Positions 29,430 to 61,868 of a stretch of DNA of 64,000 bases are shown one piece after another. Each line of letters opens with the position of its first letter. Within the stretch, counting starts at the first letter, position 1. Source of the stretch: Thermoproteota archaeon (GTDB lineage: Archaea; Korarchaeota; Korarchaeia; Korarchaeales; Korarchaeaceae). Below the pieces are notes generated by a model that was not told the DNA's origin, ran no database searches, and saw only the letters and a program-made list of their open reading frames with translations. The DNA lies in the NCBI GenBank assembly GCA_026986575.1, contig JALSOH010000009.1:1-64000 (forward strand). The letters are read 5' to 3'. The position numbers were made by a program, and so were the translations under genes.

Positions 29430-29437
29430 CACCGCTG

Positions 29438-29459: not shown

Positions 29460-29481
29460 GCCGCCAGCATAAGGAGCTGCC

Positions 29482-29586
29482 GCGGGCACGCTCCCTACGC
29501 CGGCATTACCCGGATCAGGTTCGAGGGGTCGGCGGCAGACTAGCCGCCCTCTCAGCCGGGTTCTCCCCAGCTCCCCCGGTGCCCGC
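29482..29586 (-). ncRNA. TPP (THI-box) riboswitch aptamer
   Basis: Minus strand: GCGGGCAC(P1)-CGGGGGAGCUG...GGCUGAGAGGGCGGC...GCCGCCGACCCCUCGAACCUGAUCCGGGUAAUGCCGGCGUAGGGAGC-GUGCCCGC(P1'). Conserved CUGAGA, ACCUGAU, GUAAU and GCGUAGGGA elements are present; located upstream of thiB. Confidence 0.95.
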
Positions 29587-29759
29587 CAGACCTTAAAGTC
29601 GGTAAACCTTGAAATATTTTACGCTCCACGCGGGCGCCATCCTGCTCCCGTCGGAGTATACAGCAAGGCCAGATTCCCACGATAACTTGCACGACCGAGA
29701 ATATCTTGGACCCCACATGCGGAGAAAACCCTTGTGAACCTTCCCCATGCGTGTTAAAG

Positions 29760-46213: not shown

Positions 46214-47032
46214 TCATACCTCCTCCATCATCTTCTCTATCCACGATTTTTCTCTCCTAACTCTCAGACCCCTGAACCTAGCGAGAGCGTCAAGTATCTT
46301 GGTCTGGCCCAAGAGCAAGACTAAGGAGACAGCCATGTAGAGGAGGTTCAAGGCCCATCCTTTCATGAGGGAGAGGTAGGTTTCATAGATCCCTAGGGGC
46401 TCCTCTATTAACGCCATTGGAACCAGCTCAAGGAGGAACTCGCCTGCCAAGTTAATGAATCCTATGATGGCCGTCCCTATTATGAAGCTCAGGACCCTCA
46501 GACTCTTCGTTCTCCTATATATCATGGCAAATAGTACCTCACCAGCTAGGGCTATGACGAAGAGTATGGAGATTCCAAAGGTTACAGACACTCTCATAAT
46601 ATCAATAGACCTTACATATTCCAAGAAGACGGCCCTGAAGAGGTAATACGTGTAGAAGAGCACGTAGAAGACGAAGAGGAATATCATCGTTGGAACTAGG
46701 TAGAAAACCCTGAACTCCATTAGGTATACCGCAAGCGTAGCTACTGCTGCGGATGATAGGAGGAGGAAGCTCAGAGCTAGGAACCAGCTGAATATCTTCA
46801 CTGTGGTCTCGGCGTAAACCAGAAAGACGCTCCTGTTTAACCAGTAGTAAAATACCAAGGAGAACTCTGAGAGGGCAAAGACTAGGAATGTGCTCAGAGA
46901 GAGGAGTAACCTCCTTTCTCTTGTCCGGAGTATCTCCGCGAATATGTAAAGAGAGATCGCTATCTCGGATACCAATCCCACCAAATGGGCTAGGGGATAG
47001 GGACTCATCAGGATGGACAACAGGGGAGCCAA
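46214..47032 (-). CDS. Seven-TM integral membrane protein
   Basis: Seven hydrophobic segments counted by eye; GGAGGTGA RBS 11 nt after the upstream gene. Confidence 0.78.
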   Translation of the reverse strand: MAPLLSILMSPYPLAHLVGLVSEIAISLYIFAEILRTRERRLLLSLSTFLVFALSEFSLVFYYWLNRSVFLVYAETTVKIFSWFLALSFLLLSSAAVATLAVYLMEFRVFYLVPTMIFLFVFYVLFYTYYLFRAVFLEYVRSIDIMRVSVTFGISILFVIALAGEVLFAMIYRRTKSLRVLSFIIGTAIIGFINLAGEFLLELVPMALIEEPLGIYETYLSLMKGWALNLLYMAVSLVLLLGQTKILDALARFRGLRVRREKSWIEKMMEEV

Positions 47033-47043
47033 AGTATCACCTC

Positions 47044-47502
47044 CTACATGAAGAAGAGGCCCCTAGATCTCTCAAGGGCCTTATCTACTATTCCCCGATC
47101 GTATCTCTTCTCCTCTCCCGAGGCCTCATAGCTCTCAAGCGTCCTGAATATGTCTGGGAGTATACTCTTCAGGAGTTCCTTAGTCAGCGCCTTGTTCTCG
47201 CTCAACTGCCTGTAGACTTGAATCAGCCCACCTTCCAGCCTCGAGACATCACCCTGATTCTTAGAAACTGCTAGGAGGGACGCTATCCCCGCTCGCGGCC
47301 TCTCTCCTTCCAGCCTCATGGTTATACCAACGAAGTAGAACCCTCCATGGACAAACTTGACGATCTCCCCTCCCTTAGCTGAGAATGGGAAGGACCTAAG
47401 GGGGACCGTTCCCATCTCATCTGAGAAGCTCTTTGGATAGCCAGCAATGATCTCTAGACCTCCCGGCTCGAGCGAGGCGAGCAGTAGATACTCAAGCCCC
47501 AT
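47044..47502 (-). CDS. Hypothetical protein, uDENN/longin-like fold (inferred)
   Basis: LLLASLEPGGLEIIAGYP...VPLRSFP...GEIVKF...YFVGITM...ASLLAVS followed by helices; resembles the uDENN 'G..I...YP...FP' pattern. Confidence 0.6.
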   Translation of the reverse strand: MGLEYLLLASLEPGGLEIIAGYPKSFSDEMGTVPLRSFPFSAKGGEIVKFVHGGFYFVGITMRLEGERPRAGIASLLAVSKNQGDVSRLEGGLIQVYRQLSENKALTKELLKSILPDIFRTLESYEASGEEKRYDRGIVDKALERSRGLFFM

Positions 47503-47599
47503 AATCCTCCACTCTCAACTACTCTGGAATAATAAAAGGATACCAGCGTGTCAGATCACAGATGTTTCAGGAGAGCGAGGGCTTAGAAATACTCGTTGG

Positions 47600-48490
47600 T
47601 CACTCGGCGTACCTGGCCATCATGTCAATAAGAATGTCCTTCACTTTACTGTAGTCCTTGGTCTTCGATATGCTGTTGATCACATCCATTAAAAGGGCCC
47701 TGACTTTGCTCTCTGGGGACCTCTTTGGTATCAAGGCAGCTGCAAGCAGCCCCTTCTTGTAGGCTATCACGATCTTCCTGTCCTTCATTTCTATGGACTG
47801 GGGGATGTCCCTCAAGGCATCCTCCGTGTAGTTCTTAGTGAGGGATAGAAACGCGCTCAGAGTGAGGCTCCTAGATGAAGATGTCGACACCAGAGGGTTG
47901 CCATGCTCGTCGAGGATCACGAGCTCCTCGATCCTCATTGGATGAATGACTTCTCCACCGGTGAGCTGCTCGTAGAGCCAAGCGAACGCCTCAAACAATC
48001 CAAAGCCCGTAAGGGCGCTGGTCCATACCACCTGCCAAGGTATCCCTTCCAGCTTGGTCAGGTCGAAGTAGTCTATCACCTCCATGACCGTGGCAGCATC
48101 CTCCAGATCCGCCTTGTTGGCCAGCACTAGAAGGGGGATGTTCCTCTTCATCATCGAGATAACGTTCCAGAGCTCCGCCTTTGCCTCATCAAATCTCTCT
48201 CTATCGGCGGAGTCGATGACGAATATTATGGCATCTGCCTTCTCTGCGTACTCAGCCCAGATCCTTCGGAGGGACCTCTGTCCTCCAAGATCCCATACAT
48301 TAAATTCGAGGTTCCTGACTCTGAGCCTCTCGTAGTTCGCTCCCACCGTCGGTATCGTCGATCCAGGCTCTCCCTTCCTTAAGTAGTTCAGTAGGGTGGT
48401 CTTACCGGCCCCATCAAGTCCCAGAATGACCAGAGTTGCTGACCTCCTGAAGAGGCCCAGCAGATTTGAGATGAGTCTTCCGAAGGGCAT
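47600..48490 (-). CDS. Arf-family small GTPase fused to a C-terminal longin/roadblock-like domain
   Basis: GLDGAGKTT, TIPTVG, WDLGGQRSLRRIW, ANKAD, SALTG; N-terminal amphipathic helix; about 120-aa C-terminal domain IEELVILDEHGNPLVS...LSAFLSL...QSIEM.KIVI.LLAAAL. Confidence 0.92.
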   Translation of the reverse strand: MPFGRLISNLLGLFRRSATLVILGLDGAGKTTLLNYLRKGEPGSTIPTVGANYERLRVRNLEFNVWDLGGQRSLRRIWAEYAEKADAIIFVIDSADRERFDEAKAELWNVISMMKRNIPLLVLANKADLEDAATVMEVIDYFDLTKLEGIPWQVVWTSALTGFGLFEAFAWLYEQLTGGEVIHPMRIEELVILDEHGNPLVSTSSSRSLTLSAFLSLTKNYTEDALRDIPQSIEMKDRKIVIAYKKGLLAAALIPKRSPESKVRALLMDVINSISKTKDYSKVKDILIDMMARYAE

Positions 48491-48558
48491 CGGGATACTG
48501 TGGAGTGATATTCTAAAATAGTTTTTCTAGGGTAGGCAGCTCTTTTTGTAAAATATTT

Positions 48559-48948
48559 TTAATTAATCTCCGACCCATCGCCTCCAAGGTACGACCTGAG
48601 CTCCGATATCAGGTAGTCTATCTTCTCCTTCATGTCATTGTAATCCCTCACTCCAAGCCCCAGGTAGACATCCTTCCCTACTGTGGCAAGCACCATGCAA
48701 CCGTTCTCAGATCTCAGAAGGCACATATTGAAGCTTCCCAAGCCAGCGTGTTCTGAGAGAGACCGGGATATCTCGACTATGGCTGCGCTTGAGGCAAGGA
48801 AGAAATCCTTAACCATCTCCTCGGAGAGGGAATCGTAGAGAGATATCCCGTCGGGAGTGAACAGCCCTATAAAGAGCAAGTCCTCCCCCGCATCGTCCGC
48901 GAACCTCTCAAGTATGGCCCTGAATTCCTTAGTCAGCTCGGGCATCAT
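48559..48948 (-). CDS. Roadblock/LC7 (MglB-like) protein
   Basis: Helix-FIGLFTPDGISL-helix(LASSAAIVEISRSL)-GLGSFNMCLLRSENGCMVLATVGKDVYLGL-helix. Confidence 0.85.
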   Translation of the reverse strand: MMPELTKEFRAILERFADDAGEDLLFIGLFTPDGISLYDSLSEEMVKDFFLASSAAIVEISRSLSEHAGLGSFNMCLLRSENGCMVLATVGKDVYLGLGVRDYNDMKEKIDYLISELRSYLGGDGSEIN

Positions 48949-49688
48949 TCACCACCGCGCGGGAAGATGACTGAGCTGCTCCTCAGCTCATCAAGGTACC
49001 TAGCCACTCCAGGAGCCAACTGCCTGTACTTCCCCACCAAGAACCTGAGGTATCCGAGGATCTCCATGAGGTCCTTGATCTTGTTAGCGATCTCCCTCTC
49101 CTCGAAGTCGCTGTAGACCTCCCTAAGTACCTCACCTATCTCATCGAGCTTGTCGGCTATGGACTCAACATCCCCGTCGTAGGGAGGAAGCATGTCCCTC
49201 ATCAGGTCCACCAGCATCTCCAAATAGTTGCTTGGCATGTAACTGAGCTTGGCTGGTGCCTCGTTTACCCTCGCTGCTAGGAACCTTATCTCGGCTCCTG
49301 CATCCGGCATCCTCCTGAGCACCTCTCCTAAAACGGACGTCGCAAGCTCTATCTCTCGCTCTATCTGGGTGAGTAGGTCGCCTATCCTATTCCTCATCCT
49401 CCTGATATCTTCCCTGAGCCTTCTCATCTCCTCCCTCTTCGGAAGTTCCCCCTCGGCTCGATCGAGAACTCTGCTCATTCCATTTATCAGGAGGGACACC
49501 TCCCTCTCTAGTTCATTGAGCTCTCTGTCGAAGCTCCTCCTGAGAAGGGGGCTCGAGGCCTTGAGGAGGCTGTCAGCTCTCCTGAGGTCATTCACCACAT
49601 AATAAACGTCCTCATAGAGTGAGAGAATGAGTAACTTCATTTCCAACCTTTTCGCTTCATCTTCCTCCAAATATCTTTCCAACATCAT
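48945..49688 (-). CDS. All-helical/coiled-coil hypothetical protein
   Basis: Heptad-rich E/R/L sequence; ATGA-coupled to the roadblock gene. Confidence 0.8.
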   Translation of the reverse strand: MMLERYLEEDEAKRLEMKLLILSLYEDVYYVVNDLRRADSLLKASSPLLRRSFDRELNELEREVSLLINGMSRVLDRAEGELPKREEMRRLREDIRRMRNRIGDLLTQIEREIELATSVLGEVLRRMPDAGAEIRFLAARVNEAPAKLSYMPSNYLEMLVDLMRDMLPPYDGDVESIADKLDEIGEVLREVYSDFEEREIANKIKDLMEILGYLRFLVGKYRQLAPGVARYLDELRSSSVIFPRGGE

Positions 49689-49747
49689 GCGTAAGGGACA
49701 CTAGGATGCATTTATATTTTGGGTGGACCACGACTCCCTGATAATGG

Positions 49748-51436
49748 ATGGAACCGAAGACCTTGGAGGAGATACTCAATCACCTGAGGAATTCTGGCCT
49801 TCCCCCCGAGAGGATAAATAAGTTCGTTAACCTGTTGAGGAAGGACGGAGTTCTAGATGTGATTGTGAGGGTCCTCAGCAGGTGCCGATCCTTGGAGGAT
49901 GCGCTTAAGGAGATCTCCAGCCTAGGAGGAATGGCCGATGTCTCTAAGGAGATCTCCCACAAGGTCAGTATAGTCAGGAACTTCGTCCTCACGTCCCTAG
50001 TGAATCTTTCCGTTGACAAGTCCTACATGAGGAGTTTCTTCAGGAAGAAGTCTAAGGCTAAGAAGCTAAGAGAGATACTTGTATCTACCGAGGAGGAGCT
50101 TAAGGAGACAGAGGCTCGTCTCTTAGAAGCCGTGAGGGGTGTACTCCTCAAGACCCTAGAATCCCTTGAGATCAGGGATGGAACACTCAAGGCTGAGATA
50201 GAAGGAATAAAAAGCCTTCAGGATCTAGAGATAGCCAAGAAAATTTGGAATAAGATTAAGCCCGAGTTAGAAAGGGCTGTGGATGGGACCAAGTCTCAAG
50301 GCCAAGTGAGAAGGGGCGAGGAGGCCGTGCTGATAACAGACGATTTACTCAACGAGATACTCGAAGCCTTGGCGAGGATGGAAGACAACAGGAAGGAGCT
50401 AGAGCTGAGAGGGTGCACCTTCCTCCTCCTCTCTGAGGTATCATCCCTCAAGGATCAGATCCTAAGCTGGCTCTCTTCTAACTTCGGGAAGGAGTCTTAC
50501 GGGGTAACTAGTCTCCTTAAGATAATAAGAAGGCTATCCGACGACTCGGAAACCCTCCTCTCTACTTCCATTAGACTGCTGAACTTGAGGTCCGAGCTTG
50601 AGGCGGTCAAGAGGGAGGTCTTGGATAAGATCAGCCGGAAGATGCCCCATCTCACGGAGGCCATATCGATGATAGGACTGAGCTCACCGAGGCTCCCCTG
50701 CATCATCTCCATGCCCGAGGAGATAGCCAGCCTGAGGTACGAGGTTTCAAGGCTTGGAGACACGGTGAATGCCCTCAAAGAGCTCAGCAGCGAGCTGGAT
50801 CACTTCACTGACGAGATCAAGTTCCAGCCGGAGAAGCTGTCCTACAGAACAGAGTCCGACTTCCTGAAGAGCCTAATAGAGACTCTCAGGGCCTTCAGAC
50901 TCTCTAGAGGACTCCCAAGCACGGCTTACTCTCTACCAGGTCTAATGGAGGAGCTGCTCTCCCTCTATCCGAGATGGAGGGAGTACGTGAAAGAACAACT
51001 GGAGGAAAAGGGCTACCTTGAGATAGGGGAACTCTCATTCATACCGGAGATGTGGAGAGAGTGGTTCCTTTCTAACTTGGAGGAGGAGGGGCTTACCACA
51101 ATCTCCGATGGGAAGATACTCCCCAGAGCTCCCAGTTCCGAACTAAGAAAGCTCAGAATGAAATTCGAGTTCCTGAAGGACACCTACGAGGACATGAAAC
51201 CCATATTCCAGAAGGCGGGGATAAGCGAGCAATACTTAAACTCCTTGGAGAGGAAGCTAGCCCTCCTGATGGATCCCAACTATGGGGGTGAAGATAGAGA
51301 GAAGCTGCAAAGGGAGGTTGAGGAAGGCATAGAAAGGGCCCTGAACGTTCTCAAGGGTGGTGGGGTGCCCGATGAGAAAGATGAGACTGGTGGTGATGGG
51401 CCCGCACCAAGCTGGCAAGTCCACCTTGATTCATAG
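49748..51436 (+). CDS. Long coiled-coil hypothetical protein (possible winged-helix segment near the C-terminus)
   Basis: 562 aa, helical; segment QLEEKGYLEIGELSF...LSNLEEEGLTTISDGKI. Confidence 0.8.
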   Translation: MEPKTLEEILNHLRNSGLPPERINKFVNLLRKDGVLDVIVRVLSRCRSLEDALKEISSLGGMADVSKEISHKVSIVRNFVLTSLVNLSVDKSYMRSFFRKKSKAKKLREILVSTEEELKETEARLLEAVRGVLLKTLESLEIRDGTLKAEIEGIKSLQDLEIAKKIWNKIKPELERAVDGTKSQGQVRRGEEAVLITDDLLNEILEALARMEDNRKELELRGCTFLLLSEVSSLKDQILSWLSSNFGKESYGVTSLLKIIRRLSDDSETLLSTSIRLLNLRSELEAVKREVLDKISRKMPHLTEAISMIGLSSPRLPCIISMPEEIASLRYEVSRLGDTVNALKELSSELDHFTDEIKFQPEKLSYRTESDFLKSLIETLRAFRLSRGLPSTAYSLPGLMEELLSLYPRWREYVKEQLEEKGYLEIGELSFIPEMWREWFLSNLEEEGLTTISDGKILPRAPSSELRKLRMKFEFLKDTYEDMKPIFQKAGISEQYLNSLERKLALLMDPNYGGEDREKLQREVEEGIERALNVLKGGGVPDEKDETGGDGPAPSWQVHLDS

Positions 51437-52016
51437 GCTCGATCCTTGGGCCGTCAGGATGGACTACTCCAAGGGCACCTTCTCAACCACCGTTGGCTTC
51501 GACTACGGCATAGTCCTCTGGGACGCTACTGAGGACAGGATATACAGGAGGGATCAGATAGATCTCGTGGACCCCTCGAACGAGATATGGAAGGTCACCA
51601 TAACCGGAACTCCGGGACAGATAGCCTTCGCCCCTGTGAGGAAGGTGCTGGCTAAGGGTAAGGATGGGGTGATGCTCGTGATCGACAGCGCACGTCCAGT
51701 TCAGATGGTCTACGCGTTGAGCCAGTATCAGGAGGCGAGGGAGTCTGCTGGTTCCGTGCCTCTCATAATACTCGCTAATAAGCAAGACCTTCCACATGCT
51801 AAGAGTGCCGAGACGATAGCCTCCCTCTTGGGCATAAGGTGCAGAGTCGTCCCGATATCCGCGCTGAAGGGGACCAATGTGGAGGAAAGCTTTCTCCAGT
51901 TTCTCAAGGAGGTAAGGAGAAGCATCCTCGCTAAGTCCATATCGGAGAGATTGGCCGAGAGAAAGGAGTCAAGGTGGATATCTTGGATGAGAAGAAAGCT
52001 AGCATCATCCGTTTGA
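51372..52016 (+). CDS. MglA/COG2229-type small GTPase
   Basis: GPHQAGKST, TTVGFDYG, TGTPGQ, ANKQD, SALKG; ATG 51372 after a GGGGTG RBS. Confidence 0.9.
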   Translation: MRKMRLVVMGPHQAGKSTLIHRLDPWAVRMDYSKGTFSTTVGFDYGIVLWDATEDRIYRRDQIDLVDPSNEIWKVTITGTPGQIAFAPVRKVLAKGKDGVMLVIDSARPVQMVYALSQYQEARESAGSVPLIILANKQDLPHAKSAETIASLLGIRCRVVPISALKGTNVEESFLQFLKEVRRSILAKSISERLAERKESRWISWMRRKLASSV

Positions 52017-52546
52017 GGGCTGACCTTTCTTTTAGACCCAAACCCAAATGCACGCTTACCTCCTCGGGTTACCGCGTCGAGGTGCTACCGATGGGATGTT
52101 CCTCTACCTGCGCCTCAATAATGATGGTCTCCTCCCTACCTACCCTCCGTCCCGAGGTCAGATTGATCGTCTGCGAAGAGGCGATCTCCATCAAATTGAG
52201 TGGTGTCCCGATACCCAAATCAAACCCTATCCTCATAGTACACAACAGATGCGACTTGGAGCTCGGCGGGAGGACGCTCGTGCTTCCCTGTGGGGAGGGG
52301 GCCCTCCCCACCTACTTGGAGGTCAGTAGCGTTAGAGAGGAGATGCAGGAAATAGGTCTCAATTTAAGGGGAAAGGTACTCTACAAAGGCGATCTCTCGA
52401 TATACCTCCTTCAACTGCCCACCGGAGGAGAGTTAATAGCAGGAGCAGGAGGTTCGATCATATTCAACCCTGGCAGCTACCTACTGATCACTGAGGCAGG
52501 AAGATCTAGACTCAAAGTAGATGGGGAAGAACTGATCCTCCCCTGA
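51974..52546 (+). CDS. Beta-rich hypothetical protein
   Basis: 190-aa ORF overlapping the GTPase 3' end; no motif recognised. Confidence 0.6.
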   Translation: MDILDEKKASIIRLRADLSFRPKPKCTLTSSGYRVEVLPMGCSSTCASIMMVSSLPTLRPEVRLIVCEEAISIKLSGVPIPKSNPILIVHNRCDLELGGRTLVLPCGEGALPTYLEVSSVREEMQEIGLNLRGKVLYKGDLSIYLLQLPTGGELIAGAGGSIIFNPGSYLLITEAGRSRLKVDGEELILP

Positions 52547-52548
52547 AA

Positions 52549-53061
52549 TCAAGGAACTTCAACGCTTTTGGAGACAATTTTCCCATTATCTAGGGTACCC
52601 CCTACCACCAGGATCTTACCGCTGGGTACGTACTCGGAAGGAATGAAAAGGGAGAGCTCCAAGCTTTCCTTAGGGTCAAGAGGGGCATCTAGTTGATAAC
52701 CACCCGTCACATTCTCTCCTGTGATGAGGTACACCTCTCCCCGCCCGAAGCCTAGGGTCTTGAATTGAAGCTTAACTATGGGGGAGCTACCTGCGTTACT
52801 AATCCTGAGATCTATGGCGTATCCACCCGTTGGATCCCTTAGGTAGCCGTATAGAGATGTAGGATATGAAAAGCTATAGATAGCATCGCTCGCGAGGTTA
52901 AAGGGTGGCTCAGGGAGATACTCAGATCTCAGTATCCTCACGTAAATGTCCTCTTCCAGCTCTCTAGCGGAAATAGTGGTCTGATACGCTATGAAGAGAC
53001 CTACAACGATCGAAATAGCGAGGACAATCGCTATCCAGCTCACATTCTCCGCGGTCTCCAT
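52549..53061 (-). CDS. Type IV pilin-like protein
   Basis: METAENVSWIAIVLAISIVVGLF; Ig-like C-terminal domain (ISNAG); paralog of 55174-55605. Confidence 0.75.
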   Translation of the reverse strand: METAENVSWIAIVLAISIVVGLFIAYQTTISARELEEDIYVRILRSEYLPEPPFNLASDAIYSFSYPTSLYGYLRDPTGGYAIDLRISNAGSSPIVKLQFKTLGFGRGEVYLITGENVTGGYQLDAPLDPKESLELSLFIPSEYVPSGKILVVGGTLDNGKIVSKSVEVP

Positions 53062-53081
53062 TTTGAACCTCCCATTGGAGA

Positions 53082-54677
53082 TCAGCGATAGAGCGCGAAG
53101 AGTGCCGGGGAGACCAGCGAATGAATAACCACTATCATTATCATCGAGACTATCGCGTATAATATACTCTGAATGTTTCCATGCCTAGTACCATCTGAGA
53201 CGCTGCTTGTGAAGATCCCGAATATGAAGATGAACATAACGGCGAATAGAAAGTAAACATCGATTATCCACGTCTTCGCCTTGAGGAAGGAGAGCAGCAT
53301 CAACATACCCTGCATCCCCGTGGCTATCTGGGTTCCCGCGTGTTGGACCTGAGCCATGGATTCGGACACCTTCTCACCTAGGAAGGCCATGAGGTCAACG
53401 AAGAGCATGCTGAAAGAGAGACTAACTGCCATCAGAAAGCTGTTCATGGAGAGAGTACCCCTTATCTTTTCGTAAACGGTGGACATGAGAGCTATTATCG
53501 TTCTGACGTTAAGAAGCGCTTCGTATCCGTAGATTCCCTTCTGGAGATCCGTTATCAGCTTCTTATATATCTTGTAAACGTAAATCCTCTCGAAGTCCTT
53601 CTTCTCAGGTATCTCCCCCACATTAACTAGGTTACCTAGGCTGAATTTGAGGACCTTCGAGAACCTCCCGTAAATGTCTAGGGGCATCGAGGTCACAGCC
53701 TCGGTGAATGTCTGCCCTATACTTATCCTCCCTCCCAAATCGGCTAGGAAAACCGGAAGGAACGTGTAGGTGTCCTTTCTCAGCCCAATGTACTCCTTAG
53801 TAGCTAGATATCCTACGATGAAAAAGGTCAGGACCCCCAAGAACAGGGAGTAAGTGCCGATTATGAAGTAACCAGCTACAGAGACCAGAGCGGCGAAAAT
53901 CAGCTGGATGAAGAACAACTTCCCACTGAACATTATTTGCTCGGGGTAGTACAGGAACTTGTTCTCTGAGAACAGGAGTATGAGCCCGACACCAAGCCCT
54001 AGGGCGAGGTTGATGAATAAGTACTCGACGAAGGGCATGTTGGCCACTCCACCGAGGAGAACCAGCATGAGGGGGGTCATTATGATGAAGGGCATGAGAC
54101 CGCTCAGGAAGGAGTTTATGAACCGTTCGAATGTCTCAATATTCCTCTGACTGTCTATGATCTCCTGCTGTATAACCATACTGAAAATCCCCTTGGTATC
54201 AATTCCCGTTGTCATCCCGTTGTATATGCTCGTCAGGAAGCTCTTGAAGCTCACTCCCAGTCTCTTTTCCTCTTGGAGAACCCTATTGATAGCTTCCCTC
54301 AGGTCCATGCCCATAAAGTAGAAGTAACCCATGATCTTCCTGAAGACATAGCTCCCCTCATATTCCCTCATTCGGGCGAACTGGTCAAATATGCCCGTGA
54401 CATCGAAACCTGCGTTGGCTAGTATGAAGCCATGCAACGCGAAGAGCACAGTCTCTCTGTTCACGAGCCCGTAATCCCTCCCCGTGGTGAAGAGACCGTA
54501 AAGGAGCATGATGGCGAAGAGAGGGATGAGGACGAGCACAACGTAATAGCCCGTTACGTAAGCGAGCACTCCGAGTAGCAGTGAGGAGGCGATTACCTTC
54601 TTTATGGCCCCCTCGAGCCTCTCCTTAGCGTTATATACTCCCCTCTTTTCAAGCTCAAGGGCTATAGCATCTAACAA
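53082..54677 (-). CDS. T4P/archaellum membrane platform protein (TadB/TadC/ArlJ-like)
   Basis: Two cytoplasmic T2SSF-like domains (MGMDLREAI; LPVFLADL...GQTFTEAV...YGRFS) alternating with TM bundles. Confidence 0.8.
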   Translation of the reverse strand: MLDAIALELEKRGVYNAKERLEGAIKKVIASSLLLGVLAYVTGYYVVLVLIPLFAIMLLYGLFTTGRDYGLVNRETVLFALHGFILANAGFDVTGIFDQFARMREYEGSYVFRKIMGYFYFMGMDLREAINRVLQEEKRLGVSFKSFLTSIYNGMTTGIDTKGIFSMVIQQEIIDSQRNIETFERFINSFLSGLMPFIIMTPLMLVLLGGVANMPFVEYLFINLALGLGVGLILLFSENKFLYYPEQIMFSGKLFFIQLIFAALVSVAGYFIIGTYSLFLGVLTFFIVGYLATKEYIGLRKDTYTFLPVFLADLGGRISIGQTFTEAVTSMPLDIYGRFSKVLKFSLGNLVNVGEIPEKKDFERIYVYKIYKKLITDLQKGIYGYEALLNVRTIIALMSTVYEKIRGTLSMNSFLMAVSLSFSMLFVDLMAFLGEKVSESMAQVQHAGTQIATGMQGMLMLLSFLKAKTWIIDVYFLFAVMFIFIFGIFTSSVSDGTRHGNIQSILYAIVSMIMIVVIHSLVSPALFALYR

Positions 54678-55161
54678 CTTCTACATCACCAGACTCCAAC
54701 CACATTATCACGAGGTAGTAGTCCTCTGATGGGTAGGAGGATATGGAGGGGAGATCTGTTAGGTTGACATCCACTTCAACCAATTCCTTCGCTGGGAACG
54801 ATATGACAGTTCCGTTCACCTCTGAGTACTTGGTTCCATTGTAGTAGATCGTGAGGTTCTCCCCGGTTTCACTGTAGAACACGGATATCCTGTCGGTGTA
54901 AACCCAGTCTCCGTAGTTGTAGAAGTGTATGGCAGTGTAATTGTGATCGGGGACGAGGCTTCCCCCGCTCAAGCGGTAGGTGGTGTTGGTATAGCAGGCC
55001 ACGACCGCTATGGATTTGCTGGAAGCCTTGGATGAGAGCCTGCTTATGTATGTGTGGGCCTCGGAATACTGGCTGTATGCCTTGATAAAAGCAGTAGAGA
55101 CTATAGCTAAGGCAACCAAAACTATACCTACCATAGCGAGCTTGGAAAAAGAGAGTTCCAA
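54655..55161 (-). CDS. Pilin-like protein
   Basis: N-terminal hydrophobic helix, FYNYG motif, several N-glycosylation sequons. Confidence 0.7.
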   Translation of the reverse strand: MELSFSKLAMVGIVLVALAIVSTAFIKAYSQYSEAHTYISRLSSKASSKSIAVVACYTNTTYRLSGGSLVPDHNYTAIHFYNYGDWVYTDRISVFYSETGENLTIYYNGTKYSEVNGTVISFPAKELVEVDVNLTDLPSISSYPSEDYYLVIMWLESGDVEVVRCYSP

Positions 55162-55173
55162 GGGGAGGTCCCC

Positions 55174-55605
55174 TTACGGAATCTCTATAGTCTGGGCAGC
55201 GGTCGTTCCATCACTGAAAGTAGCAGTTATCACCAAGGATTTGCTTCCAGAGACGTACCCTCCAGAGACCTTCACAGTGATATCCATTGTACCCTTCGGC
55301 GGTATGTTCAGAGTGGTGAGGTCAGCGGGACTTATTGGAGTCACGGAAGCGCCAGAGCCGAACCCGACGGGAGAGAGGTCTATACCAGTCAGCGTGTTTC
55401 CTCCTTCACCGGTGTTCACTATTCTGAAGCTGATGACGTAGGAGGAGTCAGCATCGGAGTACTGGCTGTTTATCAGCCTAACATAGAACCTCTGCCCGAC
55501 CTGCTGAGCTCCAGTGAGCACCTGACCCATCAGGAAGAGACCCACGACTGCCACAACCACCAGTACCAAGGCGATCCACACGACCTTTTCCACGGTTATC
55601 TGCAA
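55174..55605 (-). CDS. Probable major type IV pilin
   Basis: MQITVEKVVWIALVLVVVAVVGLF...IVNTG...ITATFSDGT; preceded by its own 255-bp AT-rich promoter region. Confidence 0.8.
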   Translation of the reverse strand: MQITVEKVVWIALVLVVVAVVGLFLMGQVLTGAQQVGQRFYVRLINSQYSDADSSYVISFRIVNTGEGGNTLTGIDLSPVGFGSGASVTPISPADLTTLNIPPKGTMDITVKVSGGYVSGSKSLVITATFSDGTTAAQTIEIP

Positions 55606-55860
55606 GGACTATACACCCTCCTTTATCATCTGCCATCCAAATAAAAAGATAGCCTTTCTTTTCCTAGAGCAATCGCCGACGTCCCTTATTTTTCTTTAAA
55701 GACAGTTTAGATCTGGAAAATTTGTAGGAAAAAAGAGAACAGAGGCTCTCCACGCAATCATGTCTTTATGGTAAACCCAATTATATAGATTAATTAGTGA
55801 CTGGTTGAATGCACAATATAATCAGTTCTAATGGCTAAGATTCAAAAATTTCAGGGATGT

Positions 55861-56232
55861 TCAAAGGCCCACGTTGTACTGGAACACGTGCTTTCCAACA
55901 TTCACGGCTATGATTACAACATCTCCTCTGAGATTCCCGTCACAGTAGCCGAACAACTTGACGGTCCTCTCTGTGTATGAGATCTCGCTCACATTGCATG
56001 GAGATCCATTAGTTTTCATAACCGTAATATTCTGAATTTCGCTATCTGATGTAATAGAAATGATGAACCAAGTTCTATTCTGTGAGAATTCAGAGTCCTC
56101 GACTCTAACCATTATACCCGGCTCCATGATCTTCATTTGGGTGGGGAGGACCTCAAACACTATGGATCCCACTACGATGATTGACGTAAGAGCTATCACG
56201 ATGAGGGATATGGTCTCTAGTGTTATCTCCAA
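55861..56232 (-). CDS. Pilin-like protein
   Basis: MEITLETISLIVIALTSIIVVG; GGAGGTGA RBS 4 nt before the TTG. Confidence 0.72.
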   Translation of the reverse strand: MEITLETISLIVIALTSIIVVGSIVFEVLPTQMKIMEPGIMVRVEDSEFSQNRTWFIISITSDSEIQNITVMKTNGSPCNVSEISYTERTVKLFGYCDGNLRGDVVIIAVNVGKHVFQYNVGL

Positions 56233-56236
56233 GGGC

Positions 56237-57814
56237 TCACCTCCTGTAATACCACCTGACCAGCTCCCTGTAGAAGTCCTCCAGCTCTAAGTCCATGTGA
56301 GTGAGTAGGAAGTCCAGCCTGTCCTCGAACTCATCCCTGAGATCGCTGACGGGTACGTTGGTTCTGGAGTGCAGCTGCCACAGGAACCTGTCCAGATCGA
56401 AGTCGGTGGGGTGCTGGTACACACGTATCATATCACCCGTGCTTATGTCTACCATGTAGATCTGGTCCAAGACCCTCCTGTCCTCCTTTATATTCAGGAA
56501 GAGGAGGGACCAGAGCTCCCTCATCACCGAATTGATCAGCTCCTCACTGGCGTTCTCTCCGTAGTACATCCTGAGGAGCATCCTGACCCTCAGCTTGAAT
56601 TCCTCCACCGTGTTGGCGTGTATGGTGAAGGCCAGCCCGTGACCGGTCTGAGAAGCGATCACATCCCCCAGCTCCCTTCCCAAGACCTCAGCCAGTATCA
56701 GGAGGTCGGGGGTGATTCTGAGGGCGAACTTCACTATCTCGTAGAATTCCCCTCCCCTAGCGTAGTAGGGGACCCAACTGTTACCCTTGAACCTCAGAGC
56801 GAGCTCCTCAATGTCCTCTATTGTTACCAGCTTCTTTCTCGGATCGAACATGGCCAGGGCGGCGTTGAGGAGGGTGGTCTTGCCCGTACCCACTGGGCCC
56901 GAGTAGGCGACCTTGCCCTTGTGGTCGACCATCATCCATATGGCCACGGCTGCCTCGGGTGAGAGGGACCCGAACTTTATCAGGTCATTGAATAGGAACG
57001 GTTTAGCGGGGAACTTCCTTATCTGCACAGTGGTCTGCTCGCTCTTAACCCCGCCGAAGCTCGCAGCCACTCTGAATCTGAGGCTCCCGTCCTTGCTCTT
57101 GTACATGAAGGAGACGAGCGGGGTGGCCTCGCTTATACCCCTCCCGTAGAGCGAGGCGATCCTAGAGGTGAACCTCCTAAGAGCTATCTCCGTCGGGAAC
57201 CTGACGTTGGTGTTTATCCACCTGCCCGCGAAGCGCCTCATCTTCACCCTGACAGGCTCCGTTCCCTTAACATCGATGTCAGTTATGTTCCAATCGTATA
57301 TGAGGGGCTGGATCATGCCGAAGCCTATGGTGTCCCTCAGCACGTAGTACATGACCACATCTTTCCTCAGGTTGAACTCGGTCTCAAGCCTGTACTTCCT
57401 GACTATGTCCTGTATAACCTCCTCAAGCCTACCAGCCACGAGTTTGTCGTAGTACTGCTCTTGGAACATCATCACGTCCGAAAGTATGAGGTTGATCAGT
57501 TTCTTGTCGTTCTTGGTGAGCATCCACTCGTTGACCACGTACCTGTAGCTTCCATCAGACTCCCTCACTAGGACGTTGGTGAAGCCCGTCCCCTCGGCCC
57601 TCATCAGTTCCCTACCAGGAGGAACTTCCTCCCTGGTTACGTAGATCTCCTTACCTATGATTGGTATCTTAAGCTCTTCCTGTTCCTTTCTCCTTCTTTC
57701 CTTCTTGCTCTCCAGATCGACCGATTCCAACCCCTCTATGACGCTGACCATATTCAGATTCAGGGAAATTCCCCTGAGAGGAAACCTCAACTTCCCGATC
57801 CCTAACATAAGCAC
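56237..57814 (-). CDS. Type II/IV secretion ATPase (TadA/ArlI/VirB11 family)
   Basis: IGFGMIQPL, IRKF, GPVGTGKTT, TIEDIEEL, LLILAEV, TGHG..TIHA. Confidence 0.93.
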   Translation of the reverse strand: MLMLGIGKLRFPLRGISLNLNMVSVIEGLESVDLESKKERRRKEQEELKIPIIGKEIYVTREEVPPGRELMRAEGTGFTNVLVRESDGSYRYVVNEWMLTKNDKKLINLILSDVMMFQEQYYDKLVAGRLEEVIQDIVRKYRLETEFNLRKDVVMYYVLRDTIGFGMIQPLIYDWNITDIDVKGTEPVRVKMRRFAGRWINTNVRFPTEIALRRFTSRIASLYGRGISEATPLVSFMYKSKDGSLRFRVAASFGGVKSEQTTVQIRKFPAKPFLFNDLIKFGSLSPEAAVAIWMMVDHKGKVAYSGPVGTGKTTLLNAALAMFDPRKKLVTIEDIEELALRFKGNSWVPYYARGGEFYEIVKFALRITPDLLILAEVLGRELGDVIASQTGHGLAFTIHANTVEEFKLRVRMLLRMYYGENASEELINSVMRELWSLLFLNIKEDRRVLDQIYMVDISTGDMIRVYQHPTDFDLDRFLWQLHSRTNVPVSDLRDEFEDRLDFLLTHMDLELEDFYRELVRWYYRR

Positions 57815-57821
57815 ACCCCCC

Positions 57822-58970
57822 TCACGGTAAACCGGGAGATCCCTCCATGAACTCGGACGAGAAGACCCTGCCGAGATCAGTAACTATCTCCACAGCCGTT
57901 ATCTTGTTCCTCGCATCCTCGAAGGAAAACCTAGAGTAAGTGGCAGGGCTCAGACCCTCAGGCAGATCCCCGAAGGAGAGCTTCCTCACCTGAGGGGGAG
58001 TGAGATACGTGGGTGCAGCGAATATCTCATCAAACCAAGCATCATCGGCCATGCTGGTGCTCTGAGGAAGATTTATCTGGTTCAGATTGGGCTGGAAGCC
58101 GCTATCTATCTCGGATTCGAAGTCCACAATTCGCCCGTTGACGAGGAAGTAGAACTCACTGATCCAGTTAGTGCCATTCCAGTACCTCCTCGTGGTCACG
58201 CAGTAGTGGTTCCATTCATCCGGAGCCGCTACTCTCTCATCGGGCTGATCCAGTTCCATCCCGTTGGTTATCTTCGCGATGATTCTGGGACTACCTGAGT
58301 GCGGGTCCACCCAAAACTCGAAATCCTGAAGCTTCAGCAGGAGCCAAGGAGATCCCGATCCCTTGGGATTCCTGACCATGATCCAGGAGCATCCGGTGTA
58401 GTTGTAACTCGAGGGGAGCTGGAAGTGACCCACTCCCCAGTTATCGTAATTTAGATCCACGTGCAGAGAGAAGCCCCTCAGCCCCGCCTCCAGCCTAGCT
58501 GCGATGGGGTTGTTCCCCCACCTGAGATCCCCCACACCCCTATCATCATAAATGGTGACGAACCCTGTGCAATCGGGCTGATCACACTCTAGATGGGGCC
58601 TTACGTACTCCAAGAGGCTCACCTTCACGGATTCACCTTCCCCGAGCGGAACCCCCGGACCGGTCCATGTGCCAGCGGGAAGGTTAGTGTCGTTTATCGA
58701 GAGTTCCTTGAAGAAGGTGGGTGTCCTTGATCCGTTGATGTGGACGTAGAGATACCTTAACACCGTAGATCTTCCCCTATTAACTACCAGGAGGCTATAC
58801 CTGTCTAACCATCTTATGAGAACGCTCTCTTTGGATCTCTCCCTCTCCATCTCCAGTTTCTTCCTCATCTTGACCACTGACTGACTCGCGGAAGTCTGCG
58901 CGCTAAGGAAGAAGGAGAGAGCTATCACTGTCAAAAAAACAAAGAAGATGAGGCCGATGGCGCTGTCCAC
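57822..58970 (-). CDS. Minor pilin/adhesin with inserted LamG (concanavalin-A-like) domain
   Basis: Pilin helix plus ERSKE, WNHYC, FLVNG, FDEIF, C-terminal VTDLGRVF. Confidence 0.75.
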   Translation of the reverse strand: MDSAIGLIFFVFLTVIALSFFLSAQTSASQSVVKMRKKLEMERERSKESVLIRWLDRYSLLVVNRGRSTVLRYLYVHINGSRTPTFFKELSINDTNLPAGTWTGPGVPLGEGESVKVSLLEYVRPHLECDQPDCTGFVTIYDDRGVGDLRWGNNPIAARLEAGLRGFSLHVDLNYDNWGVGHFQLPSSYNYTGCSWIMVRNPKGSGSPWLLLKLQDFEFWVDPHSGSPRIIAKITNGMELDQPDERVAAPDEWNHYCVTTRRYWNGTNWISEFYFLVNGRIVDFESEIDSGFQPNLNQINLPQSTSMADDAWFDEIFAAPTYLTPPQVRKLSFGDLPEGLSPATYSRFSFEDARNKITAVEIVTDLGRVFSSEFMEGSPGLP

Positions 58971-58979
58971 CTAAGTCCC

Positions 58980-61796
58980 CTAGCCCTTCCACACGTAGCT
59001 CCCCGAGAAGGGAACCTGGTAGCTCTCCACCCCACCGCGTCCCTTGAAGAACACGTTGAGGGTGAATGAACTCAGCTCGTGGCTCAGATGCAGCGTGAAC
59101 GTCCCGTCAGGACTGACTATCACCGCATCGCCCGTCTCAGCCACCACTACCTGCACGAACTCCCACTCGTTCTGCGGCCTGAACTCCGTTCCATCGTCCC
59201 ACACTAGCCTACCGGTCACGGTGGTACCTGATACCTGCACATCGTCGAATCTCAGCGTTCCAACCCTAGCGTTGACCCTCACAGTGTAGCCATCAGTCCT
59301 CACGAGCTCTATGGTCACGTTGTTGCCTATGAGGGACATGGCCTCGCCGGGATGCTCCAGCAGATCGTACAGCGGGAAGAACTGCAGACCCTTACCTCCG
59401 CTGGTATCCACGTAGGTCTTGTTCTCCACCTCGTTGTACACCATCGGCAGGCCGGTCACGTAGGTGGAGCCGTTCCAGTACTTCGCGTACTTGGAGACGA
59501 TTATGTAGGTCCCACTAAAGTTGCCCGGAAGCTCCACGTCAAGCCATCCGCCAAGTATCACTCTGGTGTTGTAATTCGCACCAGCGGTGATCTCGGTAGT
59601 GGCGTTCGGGTTCCTCACGAGGCGCAGGGTCACTTCGGAGGTGAGGTTGTCGGAGGTCAGGGCTATGGTCAAATTGGACGGGAAGTAACCCTCCTTAGAT
59701 GCGGTGATCAGCCAGGTCCCCTCATCGGAGGAGAAGTAAGCCGTACCATTCGCATCGGTGTAGGAGAAAGCGCTCATCCCATCAGATTCCTTGGTCATGA
59801 CGACGTAAGCCTGATCTATAGGTCCAGAAGTCTCGTTGTCCACGACATGCACCGTGAGCACTCCCTCAGCCCTCTGAAGCCTCATCTCATAGATCCCGGA
59901 GTGGTCTATGAGTATAGTCTCATTCCTCGGTAGGTAGCCCTCCTTGTAGGTGTAAACCCAGTAGAGTCCGGGGTCTATGGGATGGTCGGGCTGCCACATA
60001 CCTGTTCCATCTGTGGTACCTTCAAGTCTGACATCTGGGGAGCCTATAATGACAGTTGCGCTGGGGATGACTTCGCTCGTCTCGTTGTCGAGGACCTTTA
60101 TCACAGGCGTGACCTTGTGGTCGGGCTTGGTGAACAGCACTATCGCATCCGAGTAGAGCAGATTGTTGTAGGCCAGCAGCGCTATGCCGCTGAAATCTTT
60201 ACCATTCAGGTCGATGGTCCCCTCGAAGACGTAGACGTTGTGGTAGCTGTGATGGCATCCACATCCCCATCCATGCCCGCTCTCCACCAAGTGGCCCGGC
60301 AGCTCGTACTCATCAGATACGGTGAACTTGAAGAGGGAGCCAGCGTAAGAGTGCCATATCATCTCATCTATGTCTCTCTCCTTCTCAAACGAGGAGATCA
60401 CAAGTAGCTTAGCCTTGGTGAAGTTGTTCTCCCACACGATGTTCGGATCCACCCAGAGCTTCACATGGTATCTCTTCGGCCCGATCGTCTCAATGGTGTA
60501 ATTGAGGATGGTCGGCCTCAGGACGGGACCGTAGACGATCTTCCTTTCCATACCATCGGTGGTATTGAGGGATGCGATGAACACAGGGAGGTCCTCGTTG
60601 TAGAAGAGCACATCCTCCACGCTAGCGGAGGCCGTGGCCTCGACGCTCCTGTGGTAGAAGGTCAGGTGATCCGTCACACTCTCCGAATCTATCTCCCTGA
60701 TAGGAGCGTCATCCAAGCTCGGATAGACGAAGGAGTCTTTGTACACCAGATCGTTAGAGAAGAGGAACCAGCGGAAGTAGTGATGCCACCACCTCCATCC
60801 CCAAGTGGTGACGTTGGAGTAGAAGTACCTGAACATGTGTCCCTCATCGGTGTCCCAAGATCTCTTCCTCTCGTAGGCCACGCTTCCATACCTGTACGCT
60901 GGGCACGGGGTGAGCATCATCGATATCCTAGTGGTGGTCGGGTTGCAGTGACAGTAATTCATAGCCTCCTCATGTGTCAGGAACCTGTTGGAGGTCACGT
61001 TGAAGTAGAAGAACGCGAAGCTGTAAGCTATCCCGTTGACATTCAGGTGTGGGAAGAAGCCCGATACCACGTCGCTGGAGGAGCAGCTACCGCAGTGTCC
61101 GCAGTGCCCGAAGAGGTGGAATTTCTCCGTGCGGAGGAGCTCCCACTTGCCGTAGTTGTTGAACCACACCGACACATTGGCGTACCTGCCTCCGCAGCAC
61201 CCTCCTTCCTCCACCTCAGCCGTTATCTTGAATGGTCCGCAGACATTCCCGAAGCACTGGCTCACATTGAAGGTGGCGAATGTAGGGGCAGCCTTCAGCA
61301 GGGAGTGCCCTATCGCGAATGCCCTGAATGGCTCGCGATTCAGGACGTGGTCCTCCCATCCTGGGCGGAACAGGAACTCGTACTTGTTATAGAGGTGCTT
61401 GATATAGTTGGAGTCTATCGCTCCAATGAACGCCTCCGCTGTAACTGGTACGTCCATATCTCTAGCATCCCATCCACAGCAGCTGGCCCTCAATCCGGAC
61501 TCGACGTCAAACCTGAGACCGTGGTGAGATATGAGCAGATCCACATCTAGGTCCTTGCTACAGTGACATGCCGGGGAAGCTGGGCAGCCTATATCACCCT
61601 CGTGAACCTCGTAGGTGAAGATGCTCCAGAATGGGTGCAACGGATTGCTGTATACTGGAAGAACCGGGACTATAAGGATCGATAATGTCAGAATAAGGAT
61701 AATCCTTTTCCAAAATCTTCCATCCAAATTCCTCCTCAGGGCTTTCATTTCCATCTCCGCGCTCGTGCGCTCGGTAACTCTTATTAACCTTCTCAT
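58980..61796 (-). CDS. Large secreted adhesin-like protein: Cys/His-rich N-terminal region and carboxypeptidase-regulatory/PEGA-like repeats
   Basis: Signal peptide; two V.DNET..I..A.V...TD..G...KEGY.P repeats; multiple CC/CHC/HCGHC clusters. Confidence 0.78.
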   Translation of the reverse strand: MRRLIRVTERTSAEMEMKALRRNLDGRFWKRIILILTLSILIVPVLPVYSNPLHPFWSIFTYEVHEGDIGCPASPACHCSKDLDVDLLISHHGLRFDVESGLRASCCGWDARDMDVPVTAEAFIGAIDSNYIKHLYNKYEFLFRPGWEDHVLNREPFRAFAIGHSLLKAAPTFATFNVSQCFGNVCGPFKITAEVEEGGCCGGRYANVSVWFNNYGKWELLRTEKFHLFGHCGHCGSCSSSDVVSGFFPHLNVNGIAYSFAFFYFNVTSNRFLTHEEAMNYCHCNPTTTRISMMLTPCPAYRYGSVAYERKRSWDTDEGHMFRYFYSNVTTWGWRWWHHYFRWFLFSNDLVYKDSFVYPSLDDAPIREIDSESVTDHLTFYHRSVEATASASVEDVLFYNEDLPVFIASLNTTDGMERKIVYGPVLRPTILNYTIETIGPKRYHVKLWVDPNIVWENNFTKAKLLVISSFEKERDIDEMIWHSYAGSLFKFTVSDEYELPGHLVESGHGWGCGCHHSYHNVYVFEGTIDLNGKDFSGIALLAYNNLLYSDAIVLFTKPDHKVTPVIKVLDNETSEVIPSATVIIGSPDVRLEGTTDGTGMWQPDHPIDPGLYWVYTYKEGYLPRNETILIDHSGIYEMRLQRAEGVLTVHVVDNETSGPIDQAYVVMTKESDGMSAFSYTDANGTAYFSSDEGTWLITASKEGYFPSNLTIALTSDNLTSEVTLRLVRNPNATTEITAGANYNTRVILGGWLDVELPGNFSGTYIIVSKYAKYWNGSTYVTGLPMVYNEVENKTYVDTSGGKGLQFFPLYDLLEHPGEAMSLIGNNVTIELVRTDGYTVRVNARVGTLRFDDVQVSGTTVTGRLVWDDGTEFRPQNEWEFVQVVVAETGDAVIVSPDGTFTLHLSHELSSFTLNVFFKGRGGVESYQVPFSGSYVWKG

Positions 61797-61868
61797 CCAT
61801 TATTTAGCTCCAAAATCACAGGAGGCGGCTCCCTCATGAAAAAAATGTCGCTCAGCGAGTGCTGTTCG

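Follow-up and report, generated by a model that had tools for sequence, protein, structure and literature searches.

A korarchaeal Arf GTPase gene and its two linked partner genes, with counterparts in Asgard archaea, beside an apparent MglA-like module

In eukaryotes the budding of membranes is started by Arf GTPases, a family whose ancestry leads back to the ArfR proteins of Asgard archaea. The window analysed here, 64,000 nucleotides of contig C9 in a korarchaeal genome of 1.91 Mb that is 99.7% complete, carries an ArfR gene, g3, within a locus of eight open reading frames (ORFs), g1 to g8, at 46214-52546. The question raised by this locus is whether the eight genes form one machine. The original prediction described them as a single self-contained switch, built from a receptor, a guanine nucleotide exchange factor (GEF), a GTPase and a GTPase-activating protein (GAP), and as a candidate for an undescribed system. 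The comparisons presented here give a different picture, the locus is a composite of two modules with different histories rather than one system. Module 1 is the trio g3-g2-g1, that is ArfR, a small protein and a polytopic membrane protein. Module 2 looks like a native MglA-like/MglB-like module, with the small GTPase g7, the roadblock-type protein g4, the protein g6 and probably also g5 and g8. We consider it probable that the trio is an Asgard-type Arf switch, shared with the Asgard archaea and placed beside the native korarchaeal module.

The korarchaeal Arf GTPase itself is already known, and the new part is its partners. A preprint gave it the name ArfR, as the first ArfR to be noticed, and reports that it is restricted to a terminal korarchaeal branch and nested among Asgard homologs, from which it was inferred that an Asgard donor had passed it on fairly recently, as a single gene (bioRxiv 10.1101/2024.02.28.582541). 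The words or word stems operon, neighbo and synten do not occur in the main text of that preprint, which also has nothing on the C-terminal domain of the protein. The native regulators of ArfR remain to be established (PMC11914678), and genome layout has seldom been of help in matching Asgard GTPases to their regulators (PMC10933270). What we add to these studies is the linkage of ArfR to g2 and to membrane proteins. No report of the g2 family or of its linkage to ArfR was found in the literature searched. The conserved module of ArfR, g2 and membrane protein, including its presence in Asgard archaea, thus appears to be undescribed, which leaves the claim of an undescribed system standing for the partners but not for the published GTPase.

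The trio has counterparts in the Asgard archaea. A search of 251 sampled Asgard genomes with the wider alignment brought up the g2 family in 36 of them, and a single genome can have as many as nine copies. From the 65 matches we fetched 46 loci, for the most part those with higher scores; matches that had internal stops or lay at contig ends were largely left out, as were all with an E-value (E) above 1e-11. Of the 47 g2 genes in the 46 loci, 34 are accompanied by a co-oriented ArfR-like gene no more than 1.6 kb away, in 19 cases within 100 bp. In the 16 loci of class A, g2 (136-178 aa) is followed by ArfR (162-206 aa) and then by a membrane protein of 260-349 aa with 4-8 hydrophobic segments, without exception (16/16). 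The 14 loci of class B have a g2-like gene, two paralogous membrane proteins of ~215 aa and an ArfR of 298-307 aa, all on one strand, and the usual order is g2, the two membrane proteins, and last the ArfR with its C-terminal domain. One class B locus has the gene set twice (L173), in another the first of the two membrane proteins is cut to 166 aa (L176), and two (L163 and L184) begin with ArfR and continue with g2 and then the membrane proteins, as the window does. The pairing of ArfR with g2 accordingly spans three gene orders and two ArfR architectures, and it is kept between lineages whose g2 proteins are ~20% identical. The korarchaeal g2 and the class A partner are matched by hhalign at 98.7%.

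Some further observations were made on the Asgard loci. The g2-linked ArfR of one Heimdall archaeon is split into two short ORFs of 60 and 82 aa (L141, 5929-6357), and this may be a pseudogene or an assembly error. In at least ten class B loci a 250-aa protein and a 421-aa FAD (flavin adenine dinucleotide)-dependent oxidoreductase are encoded ahead of the ArfR cassette (for example L164, 1144-3251). The 250-aa protein has weak longin matches (Fuz_longin_1 E 0.0027, Sybindin 0.032) and shows no relation to g2 with hhalign (0.1%). A record titled Bathyarchaeota (G044; L144, 4850-6329) has a 310-aa ArfR with a C-terminal domain and then a g2-like gene split over two frames, on a contig of 6.9 kb; such cases were misassigned, according to a warning in the ArfR preprint (bioRxiv 10.1101/2024.02.28.582541).

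Among the Korarchaeia, the window's genus gave strong ArfR matches (E<1e-99) in 15 of the 21 genomes searched, and a search of 19 genomes from the rest of the class gave none, in agreement with the restricted distribution given in the preprint (bioRxiv 10.1101/2024.02.28.582541). The trio is found in 13 of the 15 ArfR-bearing genomes when all loci are counted. In one of the remaining two (G024) the contig ends within ArfR, and in the other (G020) g2 precedes ArfR and g1 was not detected. We also searched 12 loci fetched from other genomes of the genus with the eight window proteins, using tblastn. All eight genes are together in nine of the 12, at 23-99% identity; in one of these (L044) the contig stops within g8. 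This co-occurrence means that the ORFs are more than chance, and it bears out the conservation of gene content and gene order within the genus.

The two modules are nevertheless also found apart. At two paralogous loci of the genus (L041 and L042) a 52%-identical ArfR paralog is followed by g2 and g1 homologs only, and the Asgard loci examined likewise have the trio without g4-g8. Conversely, another korarchaeal genus, labelled genus g5 (distinct from the gene g5), has g6-like, g7-like and g4-like roadblock genes together in 3/3 loci, and ArfR was not found in the genomes of that genus searched. Here the g4-like gene comes directly after the g7-like GTPase gene in all three loci, and the g6-like gene (E 1e-22 to 1e-26) adjoins the g7-like genes. 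In the class as a whole g7 is present in 25 of 40 genomes (E<=1e-10), including 5/5 in the genus without detected ArfR. It is because the trio occurs by itself at the paralogous loci and has Asgard counterparts, and because g6, g7 and g4 homologs co-occur where no ArfR was detected, that the locus is described here as composite, and the single self-contained switch of the original prediction is not borne out.

The assignment of g3 to the Arf family is firm. Residues 11-175 match the Pfam Arf family (PF00025) with 180 bits, as compared to a cut-off of 22.3 (E 3.8e-53), and the best match in the PDB is an ADP-ribosylation factor (6pta_A, E 2.5e-39), with Arf/Arl chains at about 1e-39. The motifs GLDGAGKT, WDLGGQ, which includes Q71, and NKAD are conserved in 18 aligned sequences; D26, K30, T31, D67, G70, N125, K126 and D128 are invariant among them and Q71 is nearly so (90% or more). 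The hydrophobic pattern at the N-terminus is also conserved, and the maximum hydrophobic moment is 0.58-0.88 across the orthologs. Like the Asgard ArfR/AArf proteins, g3 has an Arf-family G domain, and its N-terminus may be amphipathic as theirs is. Met-Gly is the beginning of all six ArfRs inspected from class B Asgard loci (L164 5513 and others), like the eukaryotic Arfs that are myristoylated at Gly2, and the korarchaeal ArfRs mostly do not.

A quick maximum-likelihood tree search was made with 103 G domains and limited eukaryotic sampling. All the g2-linked ArfRs, 48 rows, fall into one group with a support of 87 in the SH-like approximate likelihood ratio test (SH-aLRT): 16 of class A, 16 with a C-terminal extension (15 from class B loci, and L185), 15 korarchaeal and one from the 'Bathyarchaeota' bin. 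The eukaryotic Arf/Arl proteins form a separate clade, SH-aLRT 97. After archaea, the best matches to g3 in the full database are eukaryotic Arl1 proteins, 44-48% identical, and a recent origin of g3 from a eukaryote was considered; it was rejected, as the eukaryotes are in their own clade and the partner genes are archaeal. Other Asgard Arf-like GTPases (L066-L090) have C-terminal extensions of ~146-166 aa, and their clade of 20 rows (SH-aLRT 97) falls outside the g2-linked group.

The C-terminal domain of g3 is probably of the longin/roadblock superfamily, judging from sequence profiles. With a profile of 19 sequences (A8), four distinct PDB sequences were matched in the first longin domain of MON1 (E 0.0037-0.094), and the next PDB matches are dynein roadblock chains (E 0.5-0.6). 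In Pfam, four of the 19 members match Fuz_longin_1 (best 0.0065) and three match Robl_LC7 (best 3.7e-4), but the domain of the window protein itself has no Pfam match. The korarchaeal domain is matched to that of the 298-307-aa ArfRs of class B by hhalign at 84% (E 7e-6); no relation was seen with the same program among g2, g4 and this domain (0.4-0.8%). The Arf-longin protein of the original prediction is accordingly secure in its Arf part, and weak to moderate profile evidence speaks for the longin part. A small GTPase followed by a roadblock/longin-type domain is an arrangement that g3 would share with Rag/Gtr and with fusions reported from Asgard proteins that had been annotated as Arf by sequence (PMC10933270). 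Unlike Rag/Gtr, the G domain of g3 scores as Arf, the Pfam score for Gtr1_RagA being 29.9 bits against 180. In MK-D1 the GTPase genes generally lie outside operons with roadblock or longin genes (PMC10933270), and the present ArfR subfamily differs in sharing gene clusters with roadblock- or longin-like genes.

The protein g2 is more difficult to place. It has no Pfam or PDB sequence match, its profiles (A2, A5 and A9, the last without the N-terminally truncated L142) gave only chance-level PDB hits, and the family as a whole gave nothing consistent against Pfam. The ortholog profile found 25 proteins at E<=0.001 among 1.84 billion representatives, and the named remote ones are hypothetical proteins of Heimdall or 'Asgard group' archaea. 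Four positions are near-invariant in an alignment of 58 distinct sequences, P23, P39 and G45 in 57/58 each and R70 in 55/58. When this family was compared with 29 Asgard longins of the Pfam Folliculin type, hhalign gave 80.8% (E 1.3e-5, 106 columns), as compared to at most 6.5% in 12 controls, and the loop with R70 aligns with an ARGG stretch of the Folliculin-type set. Of the uDENN/longin-like protein in the original prediction a longin-like character is retained, on weak to moderate profile evidence, and no match in Pfam or the PDB supports it. We regard g2 as a candidate minimal longin-like regulator of ArfR, and a role as the GAP of ArfR as the leading guess.

Longins of the GAP type are marked by a GP motif and an arginine finger, and it has been asked whether ArfR or Rag are the partners of the GAP-like longins in Asgard archaea (PMC12290439). 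One such complex, C9orf72-SMCR8, acts on Arf with a catalytic pocket built from two longin domains (PMC12290439). In the profile alignment the near-invariant arginine of g2 falls in the loop that would correspond to that of the longin GAP complexes (folliculin-FNIP, GATOR1 NPRL2-NPRL3 and C9orf72-SMCR8) and their Asgard relatives. Unlike these, g2 stands by itself at ~150-180 aa and lacks a DENN part, its GP motif is mostly replaced, and at the level of HMMER it has no match to Folliculin or NPR2. At the position of the motif, GP is found in 2/58 family members, NP in 13 class B rows and G-L, G-F or G-I in most others. An NPR2 lead for g2 from the Atlas (score 0.88, 19% of one cluster) was rejected, as PF06218 has no match in five Asgard genomes. 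Stand-alone longins of the Pfam Folliculin type, with frames of 174-188 aa and thereby near g2 in size, are present in some Asgard genomes (L200, L203, L208 and L226). A complex prediction with ArfR residues 1-180 and g2 gave a score of 0.00, as compared to a mark of 0.32, and speaks neither for nor against binding.

The third member of the trio, g1, has 6-8 hydrophobic segments in a crude hydropathy scan, consistent with the protein of about seven transmembrane segments that had been predicted. Behind the last segment follows a C-terminal tail with many lysines and arginines (5-9 per 20-32 residues), and at its end is a conserved WIE+MMEE-like stretch. The nearest Atlas clusters to g1 are Asgard hypothetical proteins of 240-284 aa (score 0.94), which is a lead only; the membrane proteins of the trio are conserved in position only. 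In the pairs Sar1-Sec12 and Arfrp1/Arl3p-Sys1 an integral membrane protein is dedicated to one Arf-family GTPase, which it recruits to a membrane or activates there. We draw an analogy between these pairs and the ArfR trio and claim no sequence relation.

The layout of the locus agrees with its first description, with all eight ORFs found, five on the minus and three on the plus strand, and a divergent spacer between them (Table 1). The longest ORFs of g5 and g4 overlap by 4 nt, those of g6 and g7 by 80 nt and those of g7 and g8 by 43 nt, so the plus-strand genes overlap as had been noted. The overlap of g6 and g7 is 65 nt if g7 begins at the ATG at 51372, the position where its orthologs begin. 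In the spacer an A/T run lies ~27 nt from the start of g5 and ~33 nt from that of g6, and the spacer may function as a bidirectional promoter. Five of the proteins (g1, g2, g5, g6 and g8) have no match in Pfam or NCBIfam. Close homologs of the window proteins carry the names 'Candidatus Korarchaeum sp.' or 'Korarchaeota archaeon', and the organism is thus Korarchaeia-like, as first thought.

Table 1. Positions of the eight genes, the two domains of g3 and the divergent spacer in the window
Feature	Position	Strand	Description
g1	46214-47032	-	272 aa; polytopic membrane protein, third gene of the ArfR trio
g2	47044-47502	-	152 aa; ArfR-associated family, candidate longin-type regulator
g3 (ArfR)	47600-48490	-	296 aa; Arf-family GTPase with C-terminal domain
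g3 G domain	47951-48490	-	residues 1-180; Arf family, putative N-terminal amphipathic segment
g3 C-terminal domain	47600-47950	-	residues 181-296; longin/roadblock-type, profile evidence
g4	48559-48948	-	129 aa; roadblock/LC7-type, probable MglB-like partner of g7
g5	48945-49688	-	247 aa; no Pfam/NCBIfam family
Divergent intergenic region	49689-49747	.	59 bp; TATA-like element 49710-49720
g6	49748-51436	+	562 aa; no family match, conserved partner of g7
g7	51357-52016 (probable start 51372)	+	219 aa; small GTPase, MglA-type G3 motif
g8	51974-52546	+	190 aa; no family match, invariant Cys/His

In module 2 the GTPase g7 matches both Arf (2.8e-11) and Ras (6.7e-11) in Pfam. An alignment of 10 homologs shows an invariant G3 motif, GTPGQ, together with the motifs GPxQAGKS and NKQD. 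Proteins of the MglA family are recognised by the loss of the G3 aspartate (TxxGQ type) (PMC4316618), and g7 is like MglA in having a threonine in place of this aspartate and a roadblock gene within four genes, g4 being three genes away; the earlier naming of g7 as an MglA-type GTPase is in accordance with this motif. Unlike MglA, its closest solved chains are Asgard 'Arf GTPase' entries (8oul, 3.6e-11) and Rab11, and the match to MglA is weaker and unspecific (3.7e-7). A single Group 4 MglA was reported from the only korarchaeal genome then sequenced, and that study saw no conserved neighbours for Group 4 (PMC4316618). The present g7 differs from that description, with g6 and the roadblock gene as conserved neighbours across two genera.

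The roadblock assignment of g4 holds at the profile level, where five of eight orthologs match Robl_LC7 (best 1.1e-6) and the best PDB match of the ortholog profile is 9jue_D, 'Roadblock/LC7 domain protein' (E 4e-4). It does not hold for the window protein taken singly, which is below the Pfam cut-off of 23 with 18.5 bits (E 0.0017). The L036 sequence was omitted from the alignment on account of an internal stop. Since a g4-like gene directly follows the g7 homolog in genus g5, g4 is more likely to be an MglB-like partner of g7 than a dedicated Arf regulator. The same genome has two other roadblock-type genes on opposite strands, outside the window (G000:C9:164375-165024), one of them above the Pfam cut-off (E 5.9e-10). 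Of the remaining proteins g5, conserved in nine loci of the genus, has at most sub-threshold matches of coiled-coil type, and the profiles of g6 and g8 have no match in the PDB. In one locus (L044, 4702-7163) a second, diverged pair of g5 and g6 (26-29% identity) is placed between ArfR and g2, which indicates that the two genes were duplicated as a unit. Residues C42, C46, C67, H90 and C93 of g8 are invariant in eight orthologs and suggest a metal site.

Two other archaeal systems with a small GTPase can be compared with the locus. In Asgard archaea an operon has been described with a LAMTOR1-like roadblock protein, a Rab-like GTPase and a DENN protein (bioRxiv 10.1101/2020.10.19.343400). The resemblance lies in a conserved archaeal small GTPase together with regulators of the roadblock/longin superfamily; that operon differs in its Rab-like GTPase and its full DENN and LAMTOR1-like partners, and no polytopic membrane protein is mentioned in its description. 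The euryarchaeal ArvA-ArvB-ArvC operon acts in membrane deformation, and eight Korarchaeota are reported to have an ArvA homolog (PMC10927574). Its small GTPase begins with an amphipathic helix and comes with two partners conserved in the operon (PMC10927574), which resembles the arrangement proposed for the trio; the partners here come from other families. ArvB (OapB, PF09846) has no match in the 99.7%-complete host genome, whereas the Haloferax and Methanosarcina controls do match, and the reading of g7 as an ArvA system was rejected on the absence of ArvB.

Past the end of g8, at a distance of 3 nt, a type IV pilus-like cluster follows on the minus strand (52549-63014). It encodes several small pilin-like proteins with an N-terminal hydrophobic segment, large surface proteins with LamG and CarboxypepD_reg, a 531-aa polytopic protein without a Pfam family, and an ATPase of the T2SSE family (56240-57814, E 6.4e-21). 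A second g7 paralog, 68% identical, lies just past the far end of the cluster (contig position 63949-64551), and there is no match to the profiles of g4-g8 within ~9.5 kb downstream of it. Elsewhere in the window a thiamine pyrophosphate (TPP) riboswitch match at 29474-29587 on the minus strand (66.1 bits, E 9e-11, above the Rfam gathering score) overlaps the annotated start, 29489, of a 387-aa ORF on the same strand (28326-29489).

A number of observations weigh against the trio as an Asgard-type switch with g2 as its regulator. Thirteen of the 47 Asgard g2 genes have no ArfR inside the fetched 3.5 kb, and in the korarchaeal genus g4 immediately precedes ArfR in every locus, so that a role of g4 with ArfR is possible. 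The N-terminal amphipathic signal is modest, 9% of shuffled sequences reach the value of the window g3. The tree is a quick one with several long branches, and it does not resolve which Asgard class is the sister of the korarchaeal clade. All fold assignments, those for g2 and for the C-terminal domain included, come from sequence profiles. Taken by themselves the g2 subfamily profiles score lower against the Folliculin-type set, with 0.3% for the korarchaeal, 26.8% for the class A and 16% for the class B profile. The Pfam families Folliculin and NPR2 match 0/24 g2-family members, NPR2 (PF06218) has matches in 0/5 Asgard genomes, and the genome matches to Folliculin (PF11704) are on other, mostly longer ORFs than g2. 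No solved folliculin, SMCR8 or NPRL2 chain was found with a 46-sequence g2 profile at E<=10. The window g2 has G-L where the GAP-type longins have G-P, and R70 is within 1-2 positions of the Folliculin-type arginine and not exactly on it. Homology of g1 to the Asgard membrane partners is not demonstrable either (hhalign 23.5% and 4-10%).

The constant place of g4 before ArfR, the eight genes together in most loci of the genus and the spacer shared by the two gene sets would all fit one eight-gene switch of receptor, GEF, GTPase and GAP, in which the roadblock, longin-like and seven-transmembrane proteins serve Arf and cooperate with the MglA-type GTPase, and in a Heimdall locus (L138) a g7-like GTPase does adjoin the g2-ArfR pair divergently. 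We find such a switch unlikely, as the two modules are found without each other in the loci described above, and g8 changes its position between species, being placed between g4 and g5 in the more distant species of the genus. Nor is it likely that the MglA-like module (g5-g8 and g4) controls the pilus-like locus, with the Arf trio as a mere neighbour. MglA does govern pilus polarity in bacteria (PMC9481161), and the short distance from g8 to a cluster with pilin-like, polytopic and T2SSE proteins, as well as the g7 paralog beyond it, would suit this role. The pilus-like genes are, however, adjacent only in the closest relatives (L039, L040 and L043), tblastn found none in L033-L037, and the literature searched contained no experiment on an MglA-type GTPase and an archaeal pilus. 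With the adjacency limited to close relatives, a link between the module and the pilus is a minor alternative.

It is also conceivable that the linkage is one of co-transfer or hitch-hiking, and that the neighbours do not work with ArfR. The published interpretation of the korarchaeal ArfR is horizontal transfer (bioRxiv 10.1101/2024.02.28.582541), and the 13 Asgard g2 genes without an ArfR neighbour point the same way. We think this very improbable, since hitch-hiking would not maintain a pairing at ~20% g2 identity and in varied orders and architectures. More weight can be given to the possibility that g2 is not a GAP but a GEF, a chaperone that shields the helix, or an effector or adaptor, with the membrane protein not a receptor but the regulated target, for example a transporter; here too we remain doubtful. 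Among the longin proteins with an action on GTPases, GEFs and scaffolds are in the majority (PMC12290439), the best match of the C-terminal domain is the longin domain of a GEF, MON1, and the GP motif is absent from the window g2. Against this, the conserved arginine is in the same loop as the Folliculin-type arginine, and of all the profiles that g2 was compared with, only that of the Folliculin-type longins gave a specific link.

The reading of the trio as an Asgard-type switch suggests the following course of events. Module 1 was probably imported into the korarchaeal genus as a block. By analogy with the Asgard ArfRs that have been studied experimentally, the binding of GTP to ArfR would free the N-terminal helix and bring ArfR to the membrane. 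The fused longin-type domain and g2 may form a regulatory platform, as the paired longins of eukaryotic GEFs and GAPs do, where g2 could be the GAP, with its near-invariant arginine at the position of the folliculin-type loop. The membrane protein g1 would be the anchor, the receptor or the target. In module 2, the MglA-like g7 would act with the MglB-like roadblock protein g4 and the accessory proteins. A more far-reaching proposal is that this ArfR subfamily has its native machinery for regulation and membrane recruitment in the g2 family and the adjacent membrane proteins, that g2 is a minimal arginine-finger longin and the GAP of ArfR, either by itself or in a pair with the longin-type domain of ArfR, and that the trio was transferred as a block from an Asgard archaeon to the thermophilic korarchaeal genus. 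In this full form we hold the proposal to be tentative, and rather doubtful. If it is true, the longin GAPs of the eukaryotic Arf and Rag would have a prokaryotic relative in g2, and the block-transferred trio would offer a thermostable and compact version for biochemistry.

The conserved trio names candidates for the native Arf regulators in a defined ArfR subfamily, namely a single family of small proteins together with several polytopic membrane proteins. The version from a thermophile should be suitable for expression, GTPase assays and structural work. If g2 proves to be a GAP of the longin type, this would imply that the regulation of Arf by longins predates the eukaryotes.

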